64,000 nucleotides of DNA, taken from the NCBI GenBank assembly GCA_900539375.1, contig UQBY01000006.1:47722-111721 (forward strand), in the 5' to 3' direction. The position numbers were made by a program, and so were the translations under genes. Positions 7,001 to 55,621 of this stretch are shown one piece after another. Under the pieces are notes generated by a model, which was not told where the DNA came from, did no database searches, and saw only the letters and a list, made by a program, of their open reading frames with translations. This DNA is from an uncultured Clostridium sp. GTDB lineage: Bacteria > Bacillota > Clostridia > Clostridiales > Clostridiaceae. The stretch's first letter is position 1. Every line of letters starts with the position of its first letter.

Positions 7001-8018
7001 ATTGTGTTGTTGCAAGAGTATCTGTATGAGGATCTACCTTACCATTATTTCCATTACATCCAAGAACGTCTACTCCATTCTTTTCTTCTTGCCACATTTC
7101 ATAACCTACTGCTGATCTTAAATGCCAACCATAAGTACTAGCTGTAACACTCATATACTTAGTATAATTGTTAAAGTTTGTTCCAGGTTCATCACCTTGT
7201 AAAACTTCTCCATAAATAAATGCATCTGATTTTACTGATTTTACTCTGTTTATTATGTTAGGCCAGAAATCACTTGAAGGATTGTTACCTTCTTCAGATG
7301 CTGGTAATTCAATACTCTTAGCTGCATCAAATCTAAATCCATCAGCTCCTGCATTTAAACACTCTACTAAGTAGTCTCCTATTATCTTTTGTGAAGATAA
7401 ACTTGCTGTATTTATATCTGGCATACCAATACAACATCCTTGAGTAACCTCACTTCTTACATTCCAGTGATTTATTCTAGGTGACTTACGTGCTTCATTA
7501 TATAATGTTGCATCTGCATTTGAAGCATTAGCTCCATCTGCTAAGTGATTTGCTACTACGTCTACTATTATCTTCACTCCATATTTATGAGCTTCTGTAC
7601 ACATAGCCTTAAATTCTGCAACTGTTCCAAGATATTCATTACCTAATGTAAAATATGTTGGTTGATATAACCAATACCAAGATGGATTTGAATTAGTATT
7701 AGTTTTATCTGCATTATTCCAACCACTTCCTTTTCTACATGCTTGTGCTGGTGATGTTTGAATAGAAGTGTATCCTGCATCAGCAATTTCTTTCATATTC
7801 TCTTTAATTGAATTAAATGACCAGTTCCAAGCATGAAGTATAACTCCATCCTTAATGGAATCGGCTTGTGTAGCAGCCTTTTCTGATGCATATGTTGATT
7901 CATTATTTGTGCTTACAGTAGCAGCACTTGCATTAGTTGAAAAGCTTCCCACAAATAAACTTGAAGTTACTGCTAATGTAGCAACTATACTTGTAAGTCT
8001 TTTTCGTGTCTTCCCCAT
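4068..8018 (-). CDS. Secreted AmyE-like GH13 alpha-amylase with a Gly/Ser/Thr linker, a CBM25/26-like starch-binding module and 7 C-terminal triple-tyrosine (Y_Y_Y-type) Ig-like repeats
   Basis: 1316 aa. Signal peptide MGKTRKRLTSIVATLAVTSSLFVGSFSTNASA. GVILHAWNWSFNSIKENMKEIADAGYTSIQTSP...WYWLYQP...KIIVDVVANH...GFRFDAAKS...YGEVL...WVESHD closely resembles B. subtilis AmyE regions I-IV. These are followed by (GGGST)n, then AYVY..WPGKAM..YSYTLP..IIFNDG..QIP, then 7 x ~93-aa repeats carrying LQYKF..W..Y..YVDVKD. Confidence 0.9.
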   Translation of the reverse strand: MGKTRKRLTSIVATLAVTSSLFVGSFSTNASAATVSTNNESTYASEKAATQADSIKDGVILHAWNWSFNSIKENMKEIADAGYTSIQTSPAQACRKGSGWNNADKTNTNSNPSWYWLYQPTYFTLGNEYLGTVAEFKAMCTEAHKYGVKIIVDVVANHLADGANASNADATLYNEARKSPRINHWNVRSEVTQGCCIGMPDINTASLSSQKIIGDYLVECLNAGADGFRFDAAKSIELPASEEGNNPSSDFWPNIINRVKSVKSDAFIYGEVLQGDEPGTNFNNYTKYMSVTASTYGWHLRSAVGYEMWQEEKNGVDVLGCNGNNGKVDPHTDTLATTQYAAGNGETPGSITNDKLVGWVESHDLYANAGATRGMTQIQREMAWAMLAGRAKIVPLFFNRPTDRSFGDNPMNPQGEAYNTMGQRGSDDFASKNVMAVNLFHNAMASEGEKISSINNDKVFKIERGNKGILLTNVGGSTSISTSTSLPNGTYENQAASGGTFTVSNGTLTGNMEGSSIAVLYVGATSGGGSTGGGGSTGGGGSTGGGGSTVISGAASAYFVKPSGWGTPNAYVYTKSGSSVTELNGEWPGKAMKDEGNGVYSYTLPEGTSSALIIFNDGSNQIPGAQQSGYAITSSKSMKYENGTWSETVVDTSLKVKEITTDLQSPQSTDTDIKITANASGQGTIQYKFTVTKGSTSETLSSFSTKNTVTWTPSEAGTYTIKVEAKNDKGETAELTKQFVIKTGDVDSDAPVIKSIKVNKTAPQPKNSSITFTVNAIGGENVGNGLLFYKFFVTEPNGKEQVVQYYSRKNTYTLKATKEGTYKVRVEVQNADNTTVSKEMSYEIATVVTPTELTLNSFTSSKSSPQQLGTSIVLSADAEGGTGSLTYKYYVKFNGSTTTLSTTTSNTYTWKPTKAGTYTVYVDVTDEDGNKVSDNFSYTIKSNEADNLVINSFTASKQSPQVSGTQVKLTAKATGTGTLQYKFLIKDASGNWAVLRDYGKSNTYIWRTGKAGNKTLYVDVKDSNGKVTRASMSYTVKAAAPKVTSFTADKKSPQVSGTQVKLTAKATGTGTLQYKFLIKDASGNWAVLRDYGKSNTYIWRTGKAGNKTLYVDVKDSNGKVTRASMSYTVKAAAPKVTSFTADKKSPQASGTQLLLMAQATGEGELQYKFLVKDASGNWFVIQDYSSSNIAVWKASKTGNKTLYVDVKDSNGQVTRKSMSYTITAAAPTVTSFTADKKSPQASGTQLLLMAQATGEGELQYKFLVKDASGNWFVIQDYSSSNIAIWKAGKTGNKTLYVDVKDSNGKVTRKSISYTIK
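4071..6060 (-). repeat. Coding tandem array of 7 x ~279-bp units (triple-tyrosine Ig-like repeats); the last four (4071-5186) are two pairs of near-identical duplications
   Basis: Units 4629-4907 and 4908-5186 encode 80 identical consecutive residues. Units 4071-4349 and 4350-4628 differ at only a handful of residues. The period is visible directly in the nucleotide sequence. Confidence 0.9.
6372..6445 (-). repeat. 15-bp GC-rich tandem microrepeat encoding the (GGGST)n linker
   Basis: gtgcttcc(a/g)cc(g/a)cc(a/g)cca is iterated about 4 times. The translated sequence is GGGSTGGGGSTGGGGSTGGGGST. Confidence 0.85.
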
Positions 8019-8052
8019 TAAAAATTTCCCCTTTCATTTCATAATTACTTTT

Positions 8053-8066
8053 TGTAATCGTTATAT
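8053..8066. promoter_or_regulatory. cre-like (CcpA/LacI-family) operator upstream of the AmyE-like amylase
   Basis: TGTAATCGTTATAT matches about 12/14 positions of the Firmicute cre consensus TGWAANCGNTNWCA. It lies ~35-50 nt upstream of the start codon at 8018. Confidence 0.4.
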
Positions 8067-8201
8067 AATGTATTATACAATTTTTTTTAATCAGTATCAA
8101 TAAAATATTAGAAATTATTTGTTTATTTATTTAATTCCATAATATATTTATCTAAATATTTTATCTTCAATTAATAAAAGGTGCTTTTTCAATCATAATT
8201 T

Positions 8202-8242
8202 TAAAAAAAGATGTGGAAATAAATAAATTATATTTCCACATC
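8202..8242 (-). terminator. Rho-independent terminator downstream of 8255..11173
   Basis: Inverted repeat gatgtggaaat / atttccacatc, with a minus-strand T-run (plus-strand aaaaaaa at 8203-8209). Confidence 0.75.
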
Positions 8243-8254
8243 ATATATATCATA

Positions 8255-11173
8255 TTAATTTATTTCAAATGCATCTAAAGTTATTGCATTTCCTTTTGAA
8301 GAATTATTTTTTAATCCTGTCCACTCTACTTTTATTGTATGTGTTCCTGAAGTTAATCCTGATAATGAAAATGCTACACTTTGATCTTTAGCACTTGCAC
8401 TATATAAATCTATATAATACACTTTTGAATCTACTGTTACTTTAGCTATTCCTTTATCTGATGACTTTGATGCTATTAACTTTATTCCTGTTCCTGTAAA
8501 TTTATAAGTTGCTGTTGCTGTACTAGATGCATATTTACAAGTTCCTCCACTATGTTTTGTTGAAGTTGCTACTTTCCATATTCCAGTATATGATATTTTA
8601 GAATCAGTATCTTGTACTAAATTTGCATTTACTACATAGTTCATTGATTTTCTTGTTACTTGTCCATTACTATCTTTTACATCTACATATAATGTCTTAT
8701 TTCCTGTTGCCTTTGTTGTCCATGTATAAGTGTTTGATGTTCCATAATCTCTTAATACTGACCAGTTTCCTGCTGCATCCTTTATTAAGAATTTATATTG
8801 TAATGTTCCTGTTCCTGTTGCTTTTGCTGTTAATTTTACTTGTGTTCCACTTGCTTGTGGTGATTTCTTATCTACTGTAAAACTACTTACTGTTGGAGGC
8901 ACAGCTTTTACTGTATAACTCATAGATTTTCTTGTTACTTGTCCATTTGTATCTTTTACATCTACATATAATGTTTTATTACCAACCTTATTAGCTTTCC
9001 ATGTGCAACTATTTAATATTGAATAATCTCTTATTACTGACCAGTTTCCTGTTGTATTATCTTTTACTAAGAACTTATATTGTAATACTCCTGTTCCACT
9101 TGCAGCTGCACTTAAAGTTACTTCTGTTCCGCTAGCTTGTGGTGACTTTTTATCTGCTGCAAATGAAACTACTTTTGGTTTTTCTGCTTCTTTAACAGTA
9201 TAACTCATTGCTTTTCTTGTTACTTTTCCATTGCTGTCTTTTACATCTACATATAATGTCTTATTTCCTGTTGCCTTTGTTGTCCATGTATAAGTGTTTG
9301 ATGTTCCATAATCTCTTAACACTGCCCAGTTTCCTGCTGCATCTTTTATTAAGAATTTATATTTTAATGTTCCTGTTCCTGTTGCTTTTGCTGTTAATTT
9401 CACTTGTGTACCAGTTACTTGTGGTGATTGTTTATCAGTTGTAAAACTACTTACTATAGGTGCTACTACTGTACTAGCTTTAGTGTAAGAATAAGTTACA
9501 ATTATAGTACCATTTTTAAATGTTCCTTTTGCATTACTTGGTGTTGTTTTTAAAGTATATCCACTTATTGTTTTTGCTGTTGTTGTATAGCTTGTTCCTA
9601 CTTCTCCTGTCTTTGTTGTTGAAGAAGCTATTTCATTTCCATTTTCATCTACATACTTAACTATTACTGTTCCTTTATCAACATCATCATTATCTTTAGA
9701 ATATACATAAGTTACTGTTATTGTTCCATTTTTATATGTTCCACTTGCATTATTTGGTGTTGTTTTTAAAGTATAGCCTGCTATTGTCTTTGCTGTTGTT
9801 GTATAGCTTGTTCCTACTTCCCCTGTCATTGTTCTTGAAGAAGCTATTTCATTTCCATCTTCATCTACATATTGAACTTTTACTGTTCCTTTAGATACAT
9901 CACTATTTTTAGAATATACATAAGTTACTGTTGTTGTTCCACTTTTATATGTTCCACTTGCATTATTTGGTGTTGTCTTTAAAGTATATCCACTAACACT
10001 TACTGCACTAGTTGTATAACTATCTCCAACCTTCCCTGTCATTGTTTTTGAAGTAGCTATTTCATTTCCTTCTTCATCTACATATTGAACTTTTACTGTT
10101 CCTTGACTAACTGGTGGTGGAGTTACTCCTCCATTATTACCTACTTGTGCTAATGGTACTGTAATAATATCTGTATCATCTTTTTCATGTGAAGTTGATG
10201 GGTCAACAGCACAATCACCTGTAGCATTATCTAACATTGATGGGTCATGAGGTAAACAATCTATTGCTGATATTCCTCTAGTTGAAAGTTGCATTACTCC
10301 AATACCATTACTTGTAATATAATTTTTATCTATTCCTAAAACTGATAATGGAATTGACATTTCATAGAAAGAATCATATTTTCTATCATGACCTTTAGTC
10401 ATCATATCTACCCAATTGGCACTATCACTATAAACATCATCTGGTGAAGTAGATGATTCTAATCCCCATATTTGAGCTGGTATAGAAGTTTCTGCCATAT
10501 TATATTTTACTCCTATATCTTTAAAGGATTGACAATATTCTGCATCATAGCTAGTTCCACCTGATTCATCAGCTGCTGTAAACATTGCTGGAGTTCCTAA
10601 ACCTACTTTTCCACTCATTAAAAATAAATGGTCAACTCTTGTTTCATACTCTATTTGTAAGGCATCCCAAAGTAATTTCCCATTTGCCATTTTTCCATTC
10701 ATTGCAGTTTTATTTCCTACATTTAATGCAATTACAAGAGGTACATCTAAAACTCTTCCACCATCACTTAATGGCCCATCTCCCTCTCTTGCCCAAGTAT
10801 CAGTAGTATTTACCATTTGCCATCCTATATAAAGATTATCGTCATCCCATGCTGCATACAAAGCATATGAGTCAAGAACACAGTTTTCATGTCCACCCTT
10901 CCAGTTATTAGCTATGTCCCATGCTGCACCTTGAGCTATTAACATGTCATCAGACCAGTCACTTGCATCTCCATCAATTGTTATTGTTTTTTCTTTACCT
11001 ACTCCATTAGGATTAGTTGCATACTTTCCTCTTGTTTCAGCTACTGTTGCTTTTTCAACTATATTTTCTTTGCTTATTGTTGCTGCATTTACACTAGCAA
11101 AGCTACTTAAAACGCTTACCGAAACTGCTACAGTTGTCGCAATACTCATAAGTTTTTTTGACATTGTTTTCAT
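8255..11173 (-). CDS. Secreted non-catalytic multidomain carbohydrate-binding/adhesin protein (CBM9/DOMON-like N-domain, 3 MucBP, 3 triple-tyrosine repeats, C-terminal beta-sandwich CBM-like domain)
   Basis: 972 aa. Signal peptide MSIATTVAVSVSVLSSFASVNA. ITIDGDASDWSDD...ALYAAWDDDNLYIGWQMVN follows the CBM9-like pattern. There are three GTVKVQYVDE(E/D)GNEIA...GYTLKT...VTYVYSK (MucBP) units and three Y_Y_Y repeats. The tail ends ...ITLDAFEIN. I could not see any GH13 catalytic regions. Confidence 0.7.
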   Translation of the reverse strand: MKTMSKKLMSIATTVAVSVSVLSSFASVNAATISKENIVEKATVAETRGKYATNPNGVGKEKTITIDGDASDWSDDMLIAQGAAWDIANNWKGGHENCVLDSYALYAAWDDDNLYIGWQMVNTTDTWAREGDGPLSDGGRVLDVPLVIALNVGNKTAMNGKMANGKLLWDALQIEYETRVDHLFLMSGKVGLGTPAMFTAADESGGTSYDAEYCQSFKDIGVKYNMAETSIPAQIWGLESSTSPDDVYSDSANWVDMMTKGHDRKYDSFYEMSIPLSVLGIDKNYITSNGIGVMQLSTRGISAIDCLPHDPSMLDNATGDCAVDPSTSHEKDDTDIITVPLAQVGNNGGVTPPPVSQGTVKVQYVDEEGNEIATSKTMTGKVGDSYTTSAVSVSGYTLKTTPNNASGTYKSGTTTVTYVYSKNSDVSKGTVKVQYVDEDGNEIASSRTMTGEVGTSYTTTAKTIAGYTLKTTPNNASGTYKNGTITVTYVYSKDNDDVDKGTVIVKYVDENGNEIASSTTKTGEVGTSYTTTAKTISGYTLKTTPSNAKGTFKNGTIIVTYSYTKASTVVAPIVSSFTTDKQSPQVTGTQVKLTAKATGTGTLKYKFLIKDAAGNWAVLRDYGTSNTYTWTTKATGNKTLYVDVKDSNGKVTRKAMSYTVKEAEKPKVVSFAADKKSPQASGTEVTLSAAASGTGVLQYKFLVKDNTTGNWSVIRDYSILNSCTWKANKVGNKTLYVDVKDTNGQVTRKSMSYTVKAVPPTVSSFTVDKKSPQASGTQVKLTAKATGTGTLQYKFLIKDAAGNWSVLRDYGTSNTYTWTTKATGNKTLYVDVKDSNGQVTRKSMNYVVNANLVQDTDSKISYTGIWKVATSTKHSGGTCKYASSTATATYKFTGTGIKLIASKSSDKGIAKVTVDSKVYYIDLYSASAKDQSVAFSLSGLTSGTHTIKVEWTGLKNNSSKGNAITLDAFEIN
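8630..9465 (-). repeat. 3 x ~279-bp triple-tyrosine repeat units (coding), highly similar to those in the two flanking amylase genes
   Basis: The peptides SPQ(V/A)(S/T)GTQVKLTAKATGTGTL(K/Q)YKFLIKDAAGNW recur here and are shared with 4068..8018 and 11272..15057. Confidence 0.85.
9475..10105 (-). repeat. 3 x ~65-70-aa MucBP-type repeats (coding)
   Basis: GTVKVQYVDEEGNEIATSKTMTGKVGDSYTT..., GTVKVQYVDEDGNEIASSRTMTGEVGTSYTT... and GTVIVKYVDENGNEIASSTTKTGEVGTSYTT.... Confidence 0.8.
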
Positions 11174-11196
11174 TTACTCTTTCCCCCTATTTAAAT

Positions 11197-11244
11197 ATAA
11201 AAATTTTATGCAGTATTAATATTTTCACTTAAATACTGCATAAA
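11197..11244 (-). terminator. Hairpin/terminator between amylase 11272..15057 and 8255..11173
   Basis: Inverted repeat ttatgcagtat / atactgcataa with a 13-15 nt loop and a short minus-strand T-run. Little room is left for a separate promoter, so read-through is possible. Confidence 0.55.
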
Positions 11245-11271
11245 ATATTTTTTAATTAAAGATTTTTTACA

Positions 11272-14200
11272 TTACTTTATTGTATAAGATATAGATTTTC
11301 TTGTTACTTTTCCATTACTATCTTTTACATCTACATATACTGTCTTATTTCCAGCTTTTCCTGTTGTCCATGTATATGTGTTTGATGTTCCATAATTTCT
11401 TAAAACTGCCCAGTTTCCTGTTGCATTATCTTTTATTAAGAACTTATATTGTAATGTTCCTGTTCCTGTTGCTTTTGCTGTTAATTTTACTTGTGTTCCA
11501 CTTGCTTGTGGTGATTGTTTACTTGCTGTAAGGCTACTTACTACCGGAGCAGTTGCTGATGCTGCCTTTACTGTATAAGCCATTGACTTTCTTGTTACTT
11601 TTCCATTTGTATCTTTTACATCTACATATAATGTTTTGTTTCCTGTTTGGTTTGGTTTCCATGTGCAACTGTTTAAAGTTGAATAATCTCTTATTACTGC
11701 CCAATTTCCTGTTGTATTATCTTTTACTAAGAACTTATATTGTAATACTCCTGTTCCACTTGCACCAGCCATTAATAAAACACTTGTTCCACTTACTTGT
11801 GGTGATTTTTTATCTGCCTCAAAAATAACTACTGTTGGTGCTGATGAAGTAACATTATAACTCATTGATTTTCTTACAACTGTTCCATTTGTATCTTTTA
11901 CATCTACATATAATGTCTTGTTTCCTGTTGCATTGGTTGTCCATGTATATGTGTTTGATGCTCCATAATCTCTTAATATTGCCCAGTTTCCTGATGCATC
12001 TTTTATTAAGAATTTATATTGTAATGTTCCACTTCCACCAGTTGCCTTTGCTGTTAATGTTACTTGTGTTCCACTTGCTTGTGGTGATTTTTTATCTGCT
12101 GTAAAACTACTTACATTAATATTTGAAACAACTGTTTTCTTATAAACATAAGTTACTGTTATTGTTCCATTTTTATATGTTCCATTTGCATTTGATGGTG
12201 TTGTCTTTAAAGTATATCCACTTATTGTTTTTGCTGTTGTTGTGTAGCTTGTTCCTACTTCTCCAGTCTTTGTTGTTTGTGATGCTATTTGATTTCCATC
12301 TTCATCTACATACTTAACTACTACTGTTCCTTCTTCTGATACATCATCTTTAGAATATACATAAGTTACTGTTGTTGTTGCTTTAGCAAATTTTCCTGAT
12401 GCATTTGATGGTGTTGTCTTTAAAGTGTATCCATCTATTGTTTTTGCTGTTGTTGTATAGCTTGTTCCCACTGTTCCTGTCTTTGTTGTTTGTGATGCTA
12501 TTTGATTTCCATCTTCATCTACATACTTAACTACTACTGTTCCTTCTTGTTCATTATCAGATGATTCTGACCATACTCCATTATTATATTCCATTGAACC
12601 CTTAACAACATATCCCGGTTGTTGTGCTCCTGGTTCTTGTCCCCATGTTCCATTAAAGATTACTCTTACTGAATAATCATCTCCTGCTGCTTCACCTGGT
12701 TCATATCTATATACATACCAGTCTCCTTCTTTAGTCATAGCAGTTCCTGGCCATGCTGGTCCTATAGTTGTTTCTGCTGTGCTATTTTCATATACATAAA
12801 TATTAGGTGCTGATGTCCATTTACTACTTTTTGCTTTTATAACAATATCATTTTTAGGCTTTTCTGCCATTGTATAAGTATAAGTCTTAGTATCTACAGT
12901 TCCTTCTGATGATGTACCACTAACTTCTAAAGTTGTGCTTTCTCCTATTGATAATCCTTCACCAACTGTAATAGTATCTCCATTAGAGAACTTAGTCTTA
13001 GCTCCACCATCTATTGAATAATATCCTGTTACACCTTTGCTAGCACTTAAAGTAACTGTCTCTGCTTTATATATTTTCTTACTTCCTGGATTTGCACCAA
13101 CTGATGGTTTGCTTACTCCTGTTGATTCTAAAAGAACAACTCCATTTTCTCCAGCTGTTACTGCTACGCTACCACCACTTACTACATATTCTTCTCCAGT
13201 ATAGTAATCTCTTACTCCATCACCATCATTAAATGTATCTCCAACAGATACTGTACATGGACCTGATTTTCCTGGAAGAGATATTACAACTTTATCTTCT
13301 ACACCATTTTTACTATAAACTCTACTGAAAGTATAAGGTGAAGCTGATATTTGAGTATGACTACCTGCACCTACTGCTAAGTGATTACTTCTAAATTGTC
13401 CAACTTTTTGCCAATTTGAAAGAATAGAATTATTCATTGAATTCCAATTCATATTACTACGAGTTGGTTGCTTATCACTTGTTCCATCACCTTGTCTTCC
13501 TGATTCATCACCATAATAAATTTGAACTCCACCAGGTGTAAGTAATAATGCTGTACCTGCATTAGCACTTCTAGCACCTAATGCTGTATCGTGAGATGAA
13601 ATATAGCTTAATACATTAAATGTAGGATCACTATTAATTTGTCTTGCATAGCTTGAATATGTTCCTTCTAATGCTGAACCAGTTTTATTTTCATTTCCTT
13701 GGAAAGAGAAGTTAATCATTGAATCAAATCCACCAGTTGTATAGTAAGAATCCTTACCTACACCATGATCCCAGTGTTCTCCTGTCATCCAGAAATCATC
13801 TGTCCACTTAGCTCCTGGTTTATTTGGATTATTTTGTCTCCATTCTTTAAGAGCTTGTACACCAGCTTTCTTTAATTTACCCCATTCAGTAACATTTATG
13901 TGTTTAGCTGTGTCACATCTAAATCCATCTACACCATATTCTCTTACCCAATCAGTAAGCCATTTTACTAGATATGTTGTAACACATTTTTGCATACCAT
14001 AATTTTGACAGAACTCATTTAACTCTTGTTCTTCTTGAGCTAATTTTGCTGAGCTCCACTTTTTCTTTAATATACTTGGCATTCCTGGGTCTGTAGTTCC
14101 TTCTGTAACAAAGTCTGGTAAACCATCTACACAAGTTTCAACTCCTGCAGCTTCTGGTGCTTGATTAGCATATGCTGTAAATCTTCCTTGTGTCATTCTT

Positions 14201-15057
14201 ACCCATTTAGAACCCCACCAGTTAGTTTCCCAGTCACCATTTTGAGCATCCATCATACCTTGTGAACCATTTTGAGAAGCTTCTGCAACATAGTCGTTAT
14301 ACCACTTATATTGGCTTTCTGACCAATCATAATAGATTTCTTTCCAGTTAGAAGCTAACTTACCATATCCAAATTCATCTGCATCCTTTGGATTTGCATA
14401 ACCAGCATGGTTCATAACTATATCAAATATAACTCTTATACCATGTTCATGAGCTGTATCTATAAAGTTCTCTAAATCTTGTGCAGTACCCATATTTTCA
14501 TCAACTTCAGTGTAATCTAAAGCATAATATCCATGATAAGCATAATGTTTAAATCCACCAGCTGATAATGCACCATGTATTTGTTCATAAGGTGCTGTTA
14601 ACCATATTGCATTTACTCCTAAATTATCAAAATATCCATCTTCTATTTTACTAGTTAAACCTTTTAAATCTCCACCATGGAAATATCCTTCTTTGTTTTG
14701 ATAATTTGCTATTTCATTACCACTTTTATCCAAACCTCTTCCGTAAGAATGGTCATTGCTAGTATCTCCATTAACAAATCTGTCTGTTACAACAAAATAT
14801 ACACTTGCATTATCCCAAGAGAATGTTCTATTTTCGTCATAAGTAACATCTCCATAAGACCCACTCTTTGGAACTGAATAACTTAATTCACCAGCATCAT
14901 CCATCTTAACTTTTAATACGTTTTCATCTGATTCAGAAGCAGATGTTGAATCACTAGATTGACTTGGAATAGTTGCTGCACTTGCAAATGTACTACCAAA
15001 CATACTAGTCAAAACTGTTACTGATGTAATTAGTTTTGTTAATTTCTTTAGTTTCAT
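11272..15057 (-). CDS. Secreted GH13 alpha-amylase family enzyme with a CBM25/26-like module, 2 MucBP and 3 triple-tyrosine repeats
   Basis: 1261 aa. Signal peptide LTSMFGSTFASAAT. GH13 regions are DRFVNGD, IRVIFDIVMNHAGY (I), GVDGFRCDTAKH (II), MTGEHWDHG (III) and YISSHD (IV). Then come IYVYE..WPGTAMTKEGDWYVY..VIFNG, two GTVVVKYVDEDGNQIA units and three Y_Y_Y repeats. Confidence 0.9.
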   Translation of the reverse strand: MKLKKLTKLITSVTVLTSMFGSTFASAATIPSQSSDSTSASESDENVLKVKMDDAGELSYSVPKSGSYGDVTYDENRTFSWDNASVYFVVTDRFVNGDTSNDHSYGRGLDKSGNEIANYQNKEGYFHGGDLKGLTSKIEDGYFDNLGVNAIWLTAPYEQIHGALSAGGFKHYAYHGYYALDYTEVDENMGTAQDLENFIDTAHEHGIRVIFDIVMNHAGYANPKDADEFGYGKLASNWKEIYYDWSESQYKWYNDYVAEASQNGSQGMMDAQNGDWETNWWGSKWVRMTQGRFTAYANQAPEAAGVETCVDGLPDFVTEGTTDPGMPSILKKKWSSAKLAQEEQELNEFCQNYGMQKCVTTYLVKWLTDWVREYGVDGFRCDTAKHINVTEWGKLKKAGVQALKEWRQNNPNKPGAKWTDDFWMTGEHWDHGVGKDSYYTTGGFDSMINFSFQGNENKTGSALEGTYSSYARQINSDPTFNVLSYISSHDTALGARSANAGTALLLTPGGVQIYYGDESGRQGDGTSDKQPTRSNMNWNSMNNSILSNWQKVGQFRSNHLAVGAGSHTQISASPYTFSRVYSKNGVEDKVVISLPGKSGPCTVSVGDTFNDGDGVRDYYTGEEYVVSGGSVAVTAGENGVVLLESTGVSKPSVGANPGSKKIYKAETVTLSASKGVTGYYSIDGGAKTKFSNGDTITVGEGLSIGESTTLEVSGTSSEGTVDTKTYTYTMAEKPKNDIVIKAKSSKWTSAPNIYVYENSTAETTIGPAWPGTAMTKEGDWYVYRYEPGEAAGDDYSVRVIFNGTWGQEPGAQQPGYVVKGSMEYNNGVWSESSDNEQEGTVVVKYVDEDGNQIASQTTKTGTVGTSYTTTAKTIDGYTLKTTPSNASGKFAKATTTVTYVYSKDDVSEEGTVVVKYVDEDGNQIASQTTKTGEVGTSYTTTAKTISGYTLKTTPSNANGTYKNGTITVTYVYKKTVVSNINVSSFTADKKSPQASGTQVTLTAKATGGSGTLQYKFLIKDASGNWAILRDYGASNTYTWTTNATGNKTLYVDVKDTNGTVVRKSMSYNVTSSAPTVVIFEADKKSPQVSGTSVLLMAGASGTGVLQYKFLVKDNTTGNWAVIRDYSTLNSCTWKPNQTGNKTLYVDVKDTNGKVTRKSMAYTVKAASATAPVVSSLTASKQSPQASGTQVKLTAKATGTGTLQYKFLIKDNATGNWAVLRNYGTSNTYTWTTGKAGNKTVYVDVKDSNGKVTRKSISYTIK
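11275..12115 (-). repeat. 3 x ~279-bp triple-tyrosine repeat units (coding)
   Basis: SPQASGTQV(T/K)LTAKATG..LQYKFLIKD..GNWA(I/V)LR(D/N)YG.SNTYTWTT...NKT(L/V)YVDVKD occurs twice, plus one more divergent unit (SPQVSGTSVLLMAGASGTGVLQYKFLVKDNTTGNWAVIRDY..NKTLYVDVKD). Confidence 0.85.
12120..12545 (-). repeat. 2 MucBP-type repeats (coding)
   Basis: EGTVVVKYVDEDGNQIASQTTKTG(T/E)VGTSYTTTAKTI.GYTLKTTPSNA occurs twice. Confidence 0.8.
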
Positions 15058-50192: not shown

Positions 50193-50957
50193 TTATGCTC
50201 TCATTGCATCTATAGTTTCAAGACTTAATCCTGTTCCCTTTATAATTATTTCTATTGGCACATTCATACATAATAAATTTCTTACTATTATATTAACTCC
50301 ACTATTATCAATAAACCTTCCTATTTCTTCTATAGAAAGACCAGATGCTTCTGATATTAATTCTATAGATACATTCATTTTTAAAAGATTTCTTATTATT
50401 TCTCCAACTTTTCCTTGTTCAACTTCCACCTCATTAAGTTTTTCAGAATTTATTATAATGTCAGCAACTCTTTTAAGTTTTAATCCTGTAACTTGAACAA
50501 TACTTTCAATAGAAAAGTCAAGTTCCCACATTTTCCTTACTATAGATGAAAAGATTTCATTTTCTCTAATATTTATTAATCTGTTAATAGGCATATCTAC
50601 TGCTTTTGATATATCTTCTATTGGCATATTAGTACTTATTAAATCACTTACTACCCTTTTATATTTTGAAGTAATTTTATCTTCTTCAGGTATAGGTTCA
50701 AATTTGTTTTCTTCTTTTTGTGAAAATTTTTCATTTCTTATAACTTGAAATCCATCTTTTTTATCATTTTCAATAGGCTTTTCACTAACAGCAATAACTT
50801 CTTCCTTCTTTATTTCATTTTCACAAACTTTTTCTTCTTTAATAATATCCTTCTCTATGTTTTTATTGGTTATTTTATTTTTTTTATCTTTAACAAAAGG
50901 ACTTAAAATTTTATTCTTTAATTTTATTAATTTTCTATTAACTTGTCTTTTTTTCAC
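50193..50957 (-). CDS. Soluble protein: K/E-rich N-terminus plus 4 tandem ~35-40-aa HTH-like modules (same module as the C-terminus of 51831..54074)
   Basis: The modules are ...LISTNMPIEDISKAVDMPINRLINI, MWELDFSIESIVQVTGLKLKRVADI, IIRNLLKMNVSIELISEASGLSIEEIGRFI and IVRNLLCMNVPIEIIIKGTGLSLETIDAM. There is no TM helix or signal peptide. Confidence 0.6.
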   Translation of the reverse strand: MKKRQVNRKLIKLKNKILSPFVKDKKNKITNKNIEKDIIKEEKVCENEIKKEEVIAVSEKPIENDKKDGFQVIRNEKFSQKEENKFEPIPEEDKITSKYKRVVSDLISTNMPIEDISKAVDMPINRLINIRENEIFSSIVRKMWELDFSIESIVQVTGLKLKRVADIIINSEKLNEVEVEQGKVGEIIRNLLKMNVSIELISEASGLSIEEIGRFIDNSGVNIIVRNLLCMNVPIEIIIKGTGLSLETIDAMRA

Positions 50958-51008: not shown

Positions 51009-51725
51009 CTAGCCTCTCTTTATATAGTATTTTCTAACCATAATAACCATTGCTTCCATAGATATTACCATTACTACTGCTAAAATTAATGCTTGTGTAT
51101 ATATTGGGTCTTCTGTTCTTACTATTTCTTTATCATTAGCATTAGATGATTTTTTATTTGTTGTATTTTTATTTTCTTTTTCATACTCTTCTTTACTTAA
51201 AGTTGATTTATATACTTTAGGATTAAATATATATGTATATCTTTCAACTATTCCATCTTTATTTGTGTCTTCTTCCCCTTCTACTGAAATGCTCATTTTA
51301 AAACTTACATATGTATTTAATCTTAAATAGACGTTTTTTACTCTAAGCTTTAACCCTTTTAGTTCACTTAATTTTCCTGAAAAAATATGAACCTTTCCAT
51401 ATTCCTTATCATCCATAACTATTTTTACATTATAATTACTAATAATACCCTTTTCTATAGCTTCTTCTAAGGTATAATTTTCTCCAAAACTTGTATTTTT
51501 TATATAACTGTCATCAAACTCAATATAATCTACATATCCCTCTTCATTCCATGTATTGTTTATTGTAAATTCATGGTCTTTCCCATTTATAGGACACCAA
51601 AACTCTTCCCCACCAAGGTCTTTGTCTTCGTCAGCCATAACATTTATATAAGGAATACTTATAAGAGAACTTATTAATGCAAGACATAGGAAAAAAATCA
51701 CACCTATATATCCTATTTTTTTCAT
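51009..51725 (-). CDS. Secreted protein of unknown function with a C-terminal sorting-like signal (VRTEDP + TM + basic tail); paralogue of 63211..64000
   Basis: ORF track 51009..51746. I moved the start to the ATG (MKKIGYIGVIFF...) after GGAGGAG. It has a signal peptide. The shared core is SYIKNTSFGENYTLEEAIEKGIISNYNVKIV. The C-terminus is IVRTEDPIYTQALILAVVMVISMEAMVIMVRKYYIKRG. Confidence 0.6.
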   Translation of the reverse strand: MKKIGYIGVIFFLCLALISSLISIPYINVMADEDKDLGGEEFWCPINGKDHEFTINNTWNEEGYVDYIEFDDSYIKNTSFGENYTLEEAIEKGIISNYNVKIVMDDKEYGKVHIFSGKLSELKGLKLRVKNVYLRLNTYVSFKMSISVEGEEDTNKDGIVERYTYIFNPKVYKSTLSKEEYEKENKNTTNKKSSNANDKEIVRTEDPIYTQALILAVVMVISMEAMVIMVRKYYIKRG

Positions 51726-51788
51726 AAAAACTCCTCCATTACCCATTAATATTCTTTATTATAACATATGACCTTCTTATAATAAATT

Positions 51789-51826
51789 CAAAAAAAATGT
51801 GCAAACATTATGTTTGCACATTTTTT
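51789..51826. terminator. Strong hairpin terminator after the SipW-fusion gene
   Basis: atgtgcaaaca / tgtttgcacat stem flanked by an A-run and a T-run. Confidence 0.8.
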
Positions 51827-51830
51827 ATAG

Positions 51831-54074
51831 CTATTTTATAGCTCCAAAGTCTATAGATATAACATCTGTCTTCTTTAATGGTTCTATTTCTATAACAGAT
51901 ATAACATCCATTGGTAAATTTACAATTTCTGAAACTTCTTCTTGTGCCAATCCCATTTGTAATAAATTTTTTGCTATTTGAATTATGTCATCATTTCCTT
52001 TAAGCTTCATAATTCTGCTTATGGCTAATCCTGTTGCTTCTGCAATATACTTAGAAGATATTTTCATATCTATTAAATTCTTTGCTATAGCTTCCATTTC
52101 TATATCTTCTTTAACTGTTCTAATTTCCTCTAAAGTTAAACCAGTTGCTTTTATTATATTTGCCATTGGCATTTGCATAGTTAATAAGTTTCTAACTACA
52201 TCTGCCACTGTATTTTCTTCATAGTCTTCATAATTTACTGGTTCTTCTGAAACATAAGCTTTAACTTCTCCAACTGTTAATGCAGTAGCATGAGCTATAT
52301 CCTCATATGCCATTCCCATAGAATATAAATTCTTAGCTATTGAAATAACTCTATATTGTTCTTTTATTCTTTCAACTCTTGTTACCTTTAATCCAGTTGC
52401 TTTTGCTATTTTTTCTAATGACATATTAGCATCTATAAGTTTTCTAGCTATACTTAATATTCTTTCATCTTCCCAATTTTCATCAAAAGAAACTGACTTT
52501 TCTTCAGACATTATTTCATTTAATCTTTCTTCACTTAATCCAGTTGCAAGTTTTACTTCATCCATTGCCATATTCATGTCTAGTAAATTCTTTGCTATAG
52601 TTACAACTCTATCTGCATCTTTAAGTCTATTTACTTTTTCTAATGCAATTCCTGTAGCCTTTACAATATCTTCTGAAGTAATATTTATTCCTGCTAAAGT
52701 TCTTATAAGTTTTAACGTTCTATCACTTTTAGGCTTTGAAGGTTTCTTCTTTTCTTCTACCTTTGGTGCTTCAAAAGGATTCATTCCTTGATTAATATCT
52801 TGTTGATTTTGTTGTACATACCCCTTTGAATTTTGATACATAAACTCATTTTGTTGTTGATTTGGTTGTACATTTTGTTGCATATATTCATTTGTTTGTC
52901 CATAACCATTTTGTTGGAAATTTGGTTGTTGTATATTCTGTTGACTATAACCATTTGGTTGTTGTATATTTTGTTGACCATAGCCATTTTGTTGAAAATT
53001 AACATCTTGTCCAACATAAGCATTTGGCTGTTGCACATATCCATTTTGAACAAATCCGTTTTGCATTTGCATTCCTTGAACTGCTGCCATATTGTTTTGA
53101 AGATTTGGCATATTTTCACTTACCTTTGATGTCTTTACAATATTTTTATTTTCTTCTAAAGCATCTTCAAGCTTTTTATTCATATCTTCAATTTCTTTCT
53201 TTCTTGCTTCATCTAAAAGCTTTTGAGCATCTAAAATTTTCTTTTTTTCCTCTCTAAGCTTAGTAAGTTCTGCAATTAAATCTATTCTATCATCTTCATT
53301 ATCATCTATAATAGGTTCTGTTACTTTTGCAAACTTTTTCTCTTCATGAATAGTAGCTTTTTCTTTAGGAACTTCTGCTTCATTTTTCACTAAGTTTTGA
53401 GAAACTTTTTCTTCTTCCACTATATCTTCTTTTGGCTCTTTCTTAATTAAATTTAAATTACCAATAGGAAGTTTTTTCTTCTTAGGCTTTTCCTCTACAG
53501 TAGGCTTTTTATACTGCATTTCTTCTTCTTCTTCTTCATTTCTATCCTTTTTAGGTTCAGTTATCTCCCAGAATATAACTGCTAATATAAGACCAACTAT
53601 TAATATAATACCTGTTGTTGATGATAAAAACTTCATTACCCAACCTAATTTAGGAATTGTAAGAATATGCTTACCTATAATATCATCCTTTGTTATAGGG
53701 TCATCTGCATTAGTATTACTTGAAGAAATACCTTGAGTAATAACTTGGTCTCCATCAATACTTATAATTTGGTGAGTAACCCTTTCCTTATCACCTGAAT
53801 CTGTTGTACGAACATAGGTAACAACATCTCCAACCTTATAACTATCTCTATTCTTTTTAATTACTGTAATATAATCTCCTGGTTTAATCTCTGGTTCCAT
53901 TGACCCAGTTAATACTACTTCATTCATATAGTGAGATATACTATAAATAGTCGAATTATTTGCTGCAAGATTACCTATTAAAACATAGCCTAAAACTATA
54001 CAAATTAAAATAAAGCCAACATTTTTTACTATAGCCATTGTATTTTTTGAGTCTTTACTTTTTACTCTTGCCAT
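51831..54074 (-). CDS. SipW-type (S26B, archaeal/ER-type) signal peptidase I fused to a ~570-aa extension: charged/coiled region, Q/N-rich low-complexity segment, 7 HTH-like modules
   Basis: 747 aa. TM1, then VVLTGSMEPEIKPGDYITV (Ser motif), ERVTHQII (His motif), ITQG...NADDP and TM2 (GIILIVGLILAVIFWEI). These are followed by EEEEEE/KKKK, REEKKKILDAQKLLDEARKKEIEDMNKKLEDALEE and QNGYGQQNIQQPNGYSQQNIQQPNFQQNGYGQ. Last come seven IAKNLLxMxMxxExIxxATGLxxExI modules. Confidence 0.8.
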   Translation of the reverse strand: MARVKSKDSKNTMAIVKNVGFILICIVLGYVLIGNLAANNSTIYSISHYMNEVVLTGSMEPEIKPGDYITVIKKNRDSYKVGDVVTYVRTTDSGDKERVTHQIISIDGDQVITQGISSSNTNADDPITKDDIIGKHILTIPKLGWVMKFLSSTTGIILIVGLILAVIFWEITEPKKDRNEEEEEEMQYKKPTVEEKPKKKKLPIGNLNLIKKEPKEDIVEEEKVSQNLVKNEAEVPKEKATIHEEKKFAKVTEPIIDDNEDDRIDLIAELTKLREEKKKILDAQKLLDEARKKEIEDMNKKLEDALEENKNIVKTSKVSENMPNLQNNMAAVQGMQMQNGFVQNGYVQQPNAYVGQDVNFQQNGYGQQNIQQPNGYSQQNIQQPNFQQNGYGQTNEYMQQNVQPNQQQNEFMYQNSKGYVQQNQQDINQGMNPFEAPKVEEKKKPSKPKSDRTLKLIRTLAGINITSEDIVKATGIALEKVNRLKDADRVVTIAKNLLDMNMAMDEVKLATGLSEERLNEIMSEEKSVSFDENWEDERILSIARKLIDANMSLEKIAKATGLKVTRVERIKEQYRVISIAKNLYSMGMAYEDIAHATALTVGEVKAYVSEEPVNYEDYEENTVADVVRNLLTMQMPMANIIKATGLTLEEIRTVKEDIEMEAIAKNLIDMKISSKYIAEATGLAISRIMKLKGNDDIIQIAKNLLQMGLAQEEVSEIVNLPMDVISVIEIEPLKKTDVISIDFGAIK

Positions 54075-54238: not shown

Positions 54239-55621
54239 TTATGGTATTACATCACTAAAAGTAATATTGTCAATATATATATTCCCCTTTGCCCAATATC
54301 CTATCCATATACAAGTTATAGAATTAAAATCAAAATTTTCTGGTTTCCATATTCCATTTTCCTTAGTTGTGTTTTTTTGAAGATTTAATAAATCCACACA
54401 AATAGTTTTCCATTTTCCACTTTCTATTTTATTATCATACTTAAAAGAATCTGCTGTAAAATTTTCACACCATCCCGCTATTTGATTTCCCTTTGAATCT
54501 CTTAAAGCAACAAAGGGTGAACCTTCTACCCCTTCACTTTCATTAAATATATCAAAAATTAAATACTTATCTATATAAGAAGATAAATTTAAAACTTCCC
54601 CATTATCATACATTATCTTTGTTCTAAAATCTTCAGGCTTATCTTTATAAGAATTTTTTAAATCTACATTTAAAACTACTTTATGATTATCATTAATCAT
54701 AACCCCATCTTTAATAAAATCAAAGCTATTTCCTTCAATACATTCTATTTTGCTATCATCATTCCAAGAATTATAAAGAGTTCCTTGGTAGATTTGTTTA
54801 TTATCTTCTTTAATATCCTCTTTATTTTCTTCTTCATCTTTTACTGTATCAGATGAAACACTAACACTACTTTCACTAGAAGTTTCATTATTTACTAAAG
54901 TTTCAGTTGAAACCCTAACCTTATTTCCTGCAATATTTTCTAAATTTATAAATCTATTATAAACAAAAATTCCTGCTGCTAAAATAATTCCTACTACTAC
55001 AACAAAATTTATTATAGATAGTATATTCCCTGTTTTTTTAATAGGATCGTTTTTATAATTTTTAAGAACACCTTTAGGATATGAATTAATCATTATTACA
55101 ATAGAAATAAGCATAAAAATTAAAGATACCCCTAAAAATATTAATCCAGTTTTTAACCCTTTGAAAAAGGATAGATAAGTAATACTCATCATTATAATTC
55201 CTGGCAATATTGTTATAGTATTAAAGGTGGTTTTCTTTCTTTTATTCATATTATTTGTAACTACTCTATCATAAATTCTCCATATAATAACTATAGTTAA
55301 AACTGCTGCTGAAATTATATAGGTTATTTCTAAATTCATAATATCAAACTTATAATCATATAAAAAACTTGATATAGTAATACTTACTAATATAAAAGTA
55401 ATCATAAACCTAAGCATATCTACAATATTAAGCTTTCTATGTCTCATATTTTTTCCAATAATAAAATGCTTTATAATTAAAAACATTATAGAAGCTATTG
55501 ATAAAATTAAAAAAGCTATAGAAAAATAATTAACCCCATCTTTAAACATATAAAAGCCAATTCCAGAAGCTCCACTTATAATTAAAAACATAATTAATAA
55601 TACAATCACCTGAAATACCAT
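54239..55621 (-). CDS. Polytopic membrane protein (repeated 2-TM modules related to 61490..63211) with an extracellular C-terminal beta-sandwich/CBM-like domain
   Basis: 460 aa. KKTTFNTITILPGIIMMSITYLSFFKGLKTGLIFLGVSLIFMLISIVIM aligns with the KTTFNQKMIILLSTIIMVSLTCGGFLKNLKAGIVFLIISMLF module of the 573-aa protein. The C-terminal ~200 aa end ...IWIGYWAKGNIYIDNITFSDVIP. Confidence 0.55.
   Translation of the reverse strand: MVFQVIVLLIMFLIISGASGIGFYMFKDGVNYFSIAFLILSIASIMFLIIKHFIIGKNMRHRKLNIVDMLRFMITFILVSITISSFLYDYKFDIMNLEITYIISAAVLTIVIIWRIYDRVVTNNMNKRKKTTFNTITILPGIIMMSITYLSFFKGLKTGLIFLGVSLIFMLISIVIMINSYPKGVLKNYKNDPIKKTGNILSIINFVVVVGIILAAGIFVYNRFINLENIAGNKVRVSTETLVNNETSSESSVSVSSDTVKDEEENKEDIKEDNKQIYQGTLYNSWNDDSKIECIEGNSFDFIKDGVMINDNHKVVLNVDLKNSYKDKPEDFRTKIMYDNGEVLNLSSYIDKYLIFDIFNESEGVEGSPFVALRDSKGNQIAGWCENFTADSFKYDNKIESGKWKTICVDLLNLQKNTTKENGIWKPENFDFNSITCIWIGYWAKGNIYIDNITFSDVIP

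Follow-up and report, generated by a model that had tools for sequence, protein, structure and literature searches.

A SipW-type signal peptidase carrying a sevenfold array of Rpn C-terminal domains in an uncultured Clostridium

A signal peptidase joined to a long modular tail

In a 64-kb stretch of DNA from an uncultured Clostridium sp. (referred to as a whole as the window, whose own numbering is used throughout), we analysed a gene at 51831..54074 that encodes a SipW-type signal peptidase with a tail of 575 residues. The open reading frame (ORF) starts with ATG, is preceded by a strong Shine-Dalgarno-like sequence (AAGGGGGG), encodes 747 residues spanning the whole fusion, and has intact orthologues. 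The gene, all the protein features mapped below and the genes of the surrounding cluster lie on the minus strand. The original prediction, made from the sequence alone, had described this protein as a complete S26B peptidase unit followed by a cytoplasmic array able to bind DNA, protein or another ligand. In agreement with the topology then proposed, hydropathy and AlphaFold2 (AF2) give only two transmembrane (TM) segments, at residues 17-40 (TM1, 53955..54026) and 151-172 (TM2, 53559..53624). TM1 follows a cytoplasmic N-terminal stub with a net charge of +3 (residues 1-16, 54027..54074), and TM2 is 90-100% identical in all orthologues. Family models, alignments and AF2 place the extracytoplasmic S26B catalytic domain between the two segments (residues 41-150, 53625..53954).

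Residues 16-168 match the NCBIfam model of the archaeal/endoplasmic reticulum-type signal peptidase I (TIGR02228) with 68.6 bits for a cut-off of 51.85, the Pfam model Peptidase_S26 stays below its threshold (18.4 vs 22.9), and the equivalog model of Bacillus SipW (NF046067) gives 63.9 bits for a cut-off of 190. By these scores the protein is SipW-type but has no orthologue-level match to Bacillus SipW. A GSMEP motif starts at residue 57 and a THQI motif at residue 100, and a phmmer alignment to human SEC11A brings Ser58 and His101 onto Ser56 and His96 of that enzyme. An alignment of 37 S26B sequences that extends to 23% identity has just six invariant columns, G57, S58, M59, H101, D124 and I132. 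Because of this invariance and of the alignment to SEC11A, we assign the catalytic triad to Ser58 (codon 53901-53903), His101 (codon 53772-53774) and Asp124 (codon 53703-53705), with Ser47/His87/Asp106 as counterparts in Bacillus subtilis SipW, which is also of S26B type, and Ser56/His96/Asp122 in SEC11A. The residue that comes after the serine as second catalytic residue is a histidine (H101) and not the lysine of P-type enzymes. Between residues 101 and 125 (53700-53775), His-Arg is replaced by His-Gln/Lys and Gly-Asp by Gly-Thr/Ile in this SipW clade, which has therefore lost the two residues of the structural Arg97-Asp116 salt bridge of SEC11A together while retaining the catalytic D124.

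AF2 modelling of the full-length protein gives confident coordinates for residues 10-172, with a helix at 9-39, a beta domain and a second helix at 153-172. In a Foldseek search of the PDB with this model, no match reached E<=0.001; the best was SEC11A (7p2p_A, E 2.8e-3, TM-target 0.54), and 14 of the next 15 neighbours are signal peptidases, including SipA, LepB and SpsB. Altogether, the TIGR02228 score, the alignment to SEC11A, the three invariant residues and the signal-peptidase fold bear out the S26B unit of the original prediction. Judged from sequence and model, residues 1-172 are a complete S26B (SipW-type) signal peptidase whose predicted active-site set is intact.

Beyond TM2, hydropathy shows no further hydrophobic segment in residues 173-747. 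Since the catalytic domain must face the outside, we infer that the 575-residue tail is cytoplasmic, as in B. subtilis SipW, which supports the location first suggested for it. The tail opens with a poorly conserved E/K-rich stretch that is predicted to be disordered (residues 173-259, 53298..53558; E 22% and K 19% over residues 173-275). It is followed by a single long charged helix (residues 260-318, 53121..53297) that AF2 models with a predicted local distance difference test score (pLDDT) of 64-90, and by a disordered linker rich in Q, N, G and Y (residues 319-451, 52722..53120; Q 27%, N 16% and G 9% over residues 326-445). The E/K-rich and Q/N-rich stretches both have a pLDDT below 50, and the Q/N segment measures ~120 residues rather than the ~100 initially estimated. 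The stretch of residues 276-325, in the region of the long helix, is 54-56% conserved in distant orthologues. This region had been called charged and heptad-like: one long charged helix is indeed modelled there, but no single heptad phase in residues 260-318 is better than in a shuffled sequence, so that a coiled coil is not demonstrated.

A 33-bp tandem DNA repeat (52920-52994, 2.3 copies, 90% match) lies in the part of the gene that codes for the Q/N-rich stretch. The length of the linker differs among strains, whose proteins range from 721 to 804 residues, and the repeat probably explains this polymorphism. In two orthologues of 60% identity (P0009 and P0010, with 579 and 614 residues), the linker is nearly missing. 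Being variable in length and almost gone in these proteins, the Q/N segment behaves as a dispensable linker.

The remainder of the tail consists of exactly seven modules of 37-38 residues by profile search, the number given in the original prediction. They are laid out as 2+2+3: M1 (residues 452-489, 52608..52721, net charge +3) and M2 (489-526, 52497..52610); M3 (538-575, 52350..52463, net charge +6) and M4 (575-612, 52239..52352); M5 (622-659, 52098..52211), M6 (659-696, 51987..52100) and M7 (696-733, 51876..51989, net charge -6). Acidic linkers of 11 and 9 residues, with charges of -4 and -5, separate the groups, and the array as a whole is acidic (net charge -11, isoelectric point (pI) 4.9). 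AlphaFold modelling of the tail, which had been proposed as a check, gives three helices per module, mostly with a pLDDT of 75-93, the third helix of one module continuing into the first helix of the next; the tail-only model (302 residues) has a predicted TM-score (pTM) of 0.54. After the last module comes a C-terminal peptide of low pLDDT (residues 734-747, 51834..51875) with an invariant VISIDFG (residues 738-744, 51843-51863), which may be a short linear docking motif.

Four independent resources agree on the nature of the modules. First, the NCBIfam model of the Rpn family (TIGR01784) matches only at its positions 240-273 of 273 (E 1.3e-9), with a score of 38.3 that is below the family threshold of 52.1. 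Second, phrog_3300 ('transposase', Rpn-like) matches at positions 277-312 of 313 (E 4.4e-17); of the seven modules, M3 matches the C-terminal ends of both models best, and it is with their last ~34 positions that the 37-residue module aligns. Third, precomputed Pfam annotation assigns PF27070 (HTH_Rpn_C) to every orthologue. Finally, a profile of the eleven modules of the window, compared with PDB sequences, finds RpnA(S) (7TH0, E 0.013, structure residues 17-45). These sequence matches identify the modules as the C-terminal domain of Rpn nucleases, in line with the homology to Rpn/YhgA-type proteins originally suspected. The 747-residue protein has no match to PDDEXK_2 or Transposase_31; as it has no PD-(D/E)XK domain, the fusion does not belong to the Rpn family (TIGR01784, PF12784/PF04754), with which it has one domain in common.

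RpnS, the product of an internal start in Rpn genes, is a three-helix-bundle dimer that acts as an intragenic antitoxin and binds the full-length Rpn nuclease (RpnL) specifically, and this protein-protein dimerisation is the only characterised function of the domain (PMC10400941). The three-helix unit is thus common to RpnS and, by prediction, to the modules of the fusion. The two settings differ: while Rpn nucleases have one C-terminal copy, seven abutting copies are found here, with no nuclease domain, on a membrane protease and in a non-defence neighbourhood. Searches with the tail model itself were less telling. Foldseek of the 302-residue model against the PDB returned nothing at E<=0.001, with TM-scores of 0.1-0.2. 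Four matches in BFVD at E<=0.001 were set aside as uninformative, being generic multi-helix-turn-helix viral proteins with TM-scores of ~0.15. The top PDB sequence match of the module profile, the 'CAP repeat' 8VD6, was rejected as evidence of function since it is a de novo design by ProteinGenerator and not a homologue.

Conservation and distribution of the fusion

A fusion of this kind might be an artefact, either a frameshift of sequencing or assembly or a decaying fusion of two genes, a possibility that the original prediction itself had raised. We consider this extremely improbable. The same full-length frame is found in nine clusters at 90% identity, whose members are 60-100% identical, and the window's own cluster, which bears the NCBI name 'MAG: signal peptidase I [Clostridium sp.]' (MAG, metagenome-assembled genome), is present on more than 100 contigs from NCBI, JGI, ENA and Logan. 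All seven orthologous genes recovered from loci L001-L007 have the seven modules in register. No internal start preceded by a Shine-Dalgarno sequence was detected ahead of the array, from which an RpnS-like product could be translated; there is only a weak AGGA before Met337, in the Q/N region. Some cluster members are fragmentary, such as P0007 (537 residues), and since these sequences simply stop mid-array they are consistent with truncation at contig ends.

The pattern of divergence also speaks for a functional tail. Across nine aligned orthologous proteins there are no gaps inside the modules. Orthologues that share 70-72% identity in the catalytic domain share 92% in M1; across the orthologues compared, identity is 73-76% for M6 and ~47% for M3 and M7. 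Synonymous codon identity in M1 (0.63-0.66) is similar to that of other regions, so that the conservation of M1 lies at the level of the protein and not of the DNA; such protein-level purifying selection on the modules further argues against an artefact. The tail is real and under selection. With a mutual identity of 5-45%, the modules appear to be old and individually specialised, and not the product of a recent expansion.

The fusion is found in a few uncultured gut and rumen Clostridium species. In a pattern scan of 185,579 GTDB species genomes it was present in four (RUG296, RUG13060, SUG910 and OH_SBB_8), all of them uncultured MAGs. We also searched the module profile against 1.84 billion representative proteins and retrieved 1905 proteins; the profile was built from the fusion family's own modules and thus favours this family in the ranking, and the copy counts cover the two fusion clusters and the best 148 other representatives. 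Among the matches counted, more than three modules occur only in the two fusion clusters (seven) and in one 260-residue cluster (four), that of the 254-residue family described below. The 148 other representatives comprise 104 with one copy, 35 with two, 7 with three, one with four (the 254-residue family) and one with none. In these other proteins the last module is almost always at the C-terminus, and multi-copy proteins have a period of ~70 residues, against 37 in the fusion. PDDEXK_2 nucleases make up 11 of the 44 longer module-bearing proteins. One further protein, P0031 (379 residues), has a lipoprotein-type signal peptide (...LFFGC) and two C-terminal modules; judging from it, the HTH_Rpn_C-like module may also occur outside the cytoplasm.

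Our literature search on PF27070/HTH_Rpn_C and on SipW with a helix-turn-helix (HTH) domain or a cytoplasmic tail found no publication describing a signal peptidase with such a tail. The claim that none had been described therefore holds for this architecture, but it has to be qualified by the precedent of a functional 20-residue tail in B. subtilis SipW. Indeed, the Rpn C-terminal domain and the SipW-type peptidase have each been described before, as has a functional cytoplasmic SipW tail. What is new is the presence of the Rpn C-terminal domain on a signal peptidase, the tight sevenfold array with a period of 37 residues, where one to three copies usually ~70 residues apart are found elsewhere, and the pairing with a soluble four-module protein.

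A matrix or adhesin cluster around the peptidase gene

The fusion gene lies in a secretion cluster for matrix or adhesin proteins and not in a defence island. Directly after its stop codon there is a terminator-like hairpin with a 16-bp stem and a T run (51792..51826). The next gene (51009..51746) encodes a protein of 245 residues that has a signal-like segment at its N-terminus and a TM segment near its C-terminus, and adjoins the peptidase in all lineages examined. It is followed by a gene that the original prediction had missed, two ORFs downstream of the peptidase (50193..50957), for a soluble protein of 254 residues whose K-rich N-terminus is followed by four modules that belong to the family of those in the tail, identified with the module profile (residues 98-135, 135-172, 183-220 and 220-254); its C-terminal 157 residues are modules. 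This protein is also present in L004, L005 and L006, loci of 79-97% identity. In L002, the one contig of 60% identity that reaches this position, it is replaced by two unrelated small ORFs. We considered that it might have arisen by a colinear duplication within the tail and rejected this, as there is no colinearity and only O4 resembles M5, and O2 M3, at 14-17 of 38 identities.

Upstream, the conserved neighbour is a polytopic membrane protein of 460 residues with a conserved C-terminal extracytoplasmic domain (54239..55621), after which come genes for a polysaccharide pyruvyl transferase (55652-56743) and a family-2 glycosyltransferase (GT2, 56774-57745). Two candidate SipW substrates are encoded further on. 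The first is a secreted protein of 1167 residues (57968..61471) with three MucBP domains and a CarboxypepD_reg domain, whose signal peptide ends in ...TTSAYFNS. The second is a polytopic protein of 573 residues (61490..63211), which has about five repeated two-TM units and then a signal-like hydrophobic segment, after which LAYFTAQTD stands at about residue 364. In the whole 64-kb window, a hydrophobic segment followed by xAYF[NT] occurs in these two ORFs only, and both also give sub-threshold matches to the TIGR04088 model of SipW-dependent signal peptides (scores below). The position of the motif so deep in the polytopic protein suggests, from sequence, an internal cleavage that would release a C-terminal domain of 200 residues. 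The order of the large secreted protein, the polytopic protein, the peptidase and the 245-residue protein is kept in L002, at 60% identity. This setting resembles tapA-sipW-tasA of Bacillus and sipW-bsaA of Clostridium perfringens.

The neighbourhood bears on one possible function of the tail, in which the array, as a multivalent antitoxin or decoy resembling RpnS, would trap Rpn-type PD-(D/E)XK nucleases at the membrane. The modules do correspond to the RpnS antitoxin domain, and a quarter of the longer proteins that carry them (the 11 of 44 mentioned above) are nucleases of this class. Nevertheless, we judge a defence role to be very improbable: apart from the fusion and the 254-residue protein, no ORF of the window carries the module, so that no Rpn gene lies nearby, PADLOC returned no defence matches, and the neighbourhood that is conserved is the secretion and matrix cluster. 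Moreover, the specificity of RpnS rests on a long first helix with 4-residue repeats (PMC10400941), and none is evident in the aligned modules.

Some other features of the window deserve mention. A promoter scan gave fewer sites than expected by chance and was uninformative. A search of the cluster's intergenic DNA for operator-like arrays of repeats gave none, and the arrays that do occur (63389-63705) belong to the coding sequence of an ORF upstream. This partial ORF (63214-63999, at least 262 residues), which runs off the end of the window, is a paralogue of the 245-residue protein (51009-51746), with which it shares a ...LEEA.EKG.I..Y.V... domain. Its proline-rich PxPD(K/N)P repeat corresponds to 15-nt and 9-nt DNA repeats at 63448-63705. 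Both paralogues end in [IV][KR]T[GE]D, a TM segment and a basic tail, which resembles an ending of the sorting-signal type. In the 222-bp gap between the genes of the 1167-residue protein and GT2, there is a 35-nt inverted repeat (57853-57925, 80% complementary, 3-nt loop) that may be a terminator or attenuator within the cluster. Finally, three very large tandem ORFs (1316, 972 and 1261 residues) at 4068-15057 (minus strand) have neither an AYF signal motif nor a module.

Possible roles of the tail

We tentatively favour, with a probability of about 0.4, the view that this SipW is bifunctional, its tail serving as a multivalent platform for docking and regulation that binds mainly proteins. 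Outside the cell, the enzyme would remove the AYF-type signal peptides of the co-encoded 1167-residue MucBP adhesin and of the 573-residue protein, as the gene context suggests. Inside, the disordered linkers and the single long helix would hold the modules away from the membrane, and the seven HTH_Rpn_C modules would dock cytoplasmic partners, mainly by protein-protein contacts, which we propose because the same domain mediates RpnS-RpnL dimerisation. The co-encoded four-module protein, another conserved cytoplasmic partner of M1, or both, would be the likely partners. The array could thereby link control of the matrix or adhesin programme in the cytoplasm to the status of matrix-protein export at the membrane. 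The acidity of the array is in favour of this proposal, as it argues against DNA as the main ligand.

Besides RpnS-RpnL recognition, the proposal has a second precedent. The C-terminal 20 residues of B. subtilis SipW, which are cytoplasmic, activate matrix genes independently of peptidase activity (PMC8767453; PMC13566338), a regulation for which we found no mechanism in the literature consulted. The array of the fusion might be an enlarged version of this role. In addition to their type and triad, the two enzymes have in common N- and C-terminal membrane anchors, a cytoplasmic C-tail and genes encoded together with dedicated matrix-protein substrates (candidates in our case). They differ in that the B. 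subtilis protein has ~190 residues, with a tail that contains no recognisable domain, whereas the tail of the fusion has 575 residues and seven HTH_Rpn_C modules, and in that the candidate substrates are the MucBP protein and a polytopic protein, not TasA and TapA.

Several observations weigh against this reading. The strong terminator-like hairpin lies between the peptidase gene and those downstream of it, among them that of the putative four-module partner; as this protein is absent beside the gene in L002, where the tail is still conserved, it cannot be the sole or obligatory partner. The TIGR04088 model of the 'SipW-dependent-type signal peptide' scores below its cut-off of 19 bits for both candidate substrates (14.2 bits for the 1167-residue and 17.1 for the 573-residue protein). 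On the distant orthologues P0009 and P0010, the PF27070 matches of individual modules are flagged 'faint'. Furthermore, M1 and M3 are basic and a conserved basic patch precedes M1, features that would suit binding to nucleic acids or membranes, and the weak Pfam similarities are all to DNA-binding HTH families.

The last two points lead to the main rival, direct DNA binding, which we regard as possible but doubtful. Here all seven HTH modules, or a basic subset (M1, M3 and M6), would form a membrane-tethered DNA-binding array, and SipW would be a membrane-anchored transcription regulator or a tether of the matrix locus or the nucleoid to the export site. The geometry of each module in the AF2 model is that of an HTH, and the whole-protein score for the Pfam model HTH_26 is 26.7 for a cut-off of 22, although no individual HTH_26 stretch is significant. 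Weak similarities to HTH_3, HTH_18, sigma-70 region 4, KorA and the Trp repressor are seen in the fusion and in other module-bearing proteins, and HHpred relates RpnS itself to HTH motifs (PMC10400941). The third helices of M1 and M3 (ALEKVNRLK and KVTRVERIK) resemble recognition helices, M1 is nearly invariant, and the tail of B. subtilis SipW affects the transcription of matrix genes (PMC8767453). Against this stand the net charge of the array and its acidic linkers, and the Glu or Asp residues in the third helix of most modules (SEERL, LEEI, IEEI). The sole experimentally characterised role of the domain is protein dimerisation (PMC10400941), and no operator-like repeat array turned up in the intergenic DNA of the cluster. 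Finally, the lipoprotein-type signal of P0031 indicates that the module is not restricted to contexts facing DNA, which argues against an obligatory role in DNA binding. Of the ligands named in the original prediction, DNA is thus the one that composition does not favour.

A purely structural role was also considered. The long helix and the prion-like Q/N segment would oligomerise or cluster the peptidase, and the rigid array would act as a scaffold or spacer, with no regulatory role, that recruits GT2, the pyruvyl transferase or the Sec machinery to a site dedicated to the export of the giant adhesin. The architecture of the tail, with disordered linkers, one 59-residue helix and stacked helical repeats, would suit such a role, as would the continuity from helix 3 to helix 1 of successive modules, which is as in solenoid repeats, and the pTM of the tail-only model; a continuous repeat structure is also the fold of a de novo design whose repeat unit is similar in sequence. 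The cluster, moreover, encodes two cytoplasmic transferases and two polytopic proteins. However, the Q/N segment is dispensable and nearly absent in P0009 and P0010, the long helix has no coiled-coil heptad phase, and the near-invariant surface residues of M1 point to a specific partner and not to bulk scaffolding. We therefore hold this explanation to be improbable; if the tail only scaffolds, the fusion would be a lineage-restricted curiosity of uncultured rumen and gut Clostridium.

Should the tail instead be the regulatory dock that we favour, it would give a tractable handle on feedback from matrix-protein export to the cytoplasm, it would show the Rpn C-terminal domain recruited outside phage defence, and a new architecture would be added to type I signal peptidases. 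A more specific version, which is speculative and has little likelihood in our view, is that the signal peptidase senses the flux or presence of matrix or adhesin substrates in the membrane and that the modules, as a 'zipper code', capture or release specific cytoplasmic partners (the four-module protein and the partner of M1), thereby switching matrix gene expression or biosynthesis. If true, this would provide a housekeeping, non-defence function for the RpnS antitoxin fold and a model of the mechanism, so far unexplained, by which SipW tails act as regulators. In any case, the fusion is a natural exaggeration of the SipW tail idea, with a large, structured and strongly conserved array and a candidate partner encoded nearby.

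Comparison with other systems helps to place the protein. In C. perfringens, the biofilm operon sipW-bsaABCRSD combines SipW with a secreted matrix protein that needs it and with regulators (PMC7395162). Our fusion is likewise a clostridial SipW encoded with a (candidate) secreted matrix protein. Regulation in C. perfringens involves a separate two-component system, BsaS/BsaR, and no long tail is described, whereas the putative regulatory or docking array is here part of the peptidase polypeptide. A functional analogy can also be drawn with regulators of the ToxR/CadC type, in which a cytoplasmic HTH-type domain is likewise tethered in one polypeptide with an extracytoplasmic domain. These regulators have a single N-terminal winged-helix DNA-binding domain and a sensor domain outside the cell, while the fusion has an enzyme outside and a sevenfold acidic array inside, and there is no sequence relationship.

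Closer to the fusion are clostridial SipW relatives of 189-314 residues (P0177-P0198), which share a 48-60% identical peptidase domain and the FWExTDP junction after TM2. Their charged tails, of 20-140 residues and some with a conserved motif of their own, are four to ten times shorter. The idea that such short tails are a degenerate single module was tested and discarded, as hmmsearch found nothing at E<=1 and hhalign gave a probability of 0.3%. Since the functional tail of B. subtilis SipW and these other tails of 20-140 residues precede it, the novelty of the fusion is one of degree and of domain content, not of principle. In eight of these relatives (P0177-P0184, 245-283 residues), another conserved cytoplasmic tail of ~60 residues is found (LRELIFDNLKEFGRLSKEDEEIIL...W...SIExFF), which bears no relation to the module. 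In these clostridia, the C-terminus of SipW seems particularly prone to acquiring cytoplasmic domains. A different combination is seen in P0011 (531 residues, 'signal peptidase' in JGI), whose S26B peptidase precedes a K-rich loop, a third TM segment, a TKAYFSD motif and a lamin-tail domain. This protein looks like a peptidase joined to a secreted module of the substrate kind, and it may process itself.

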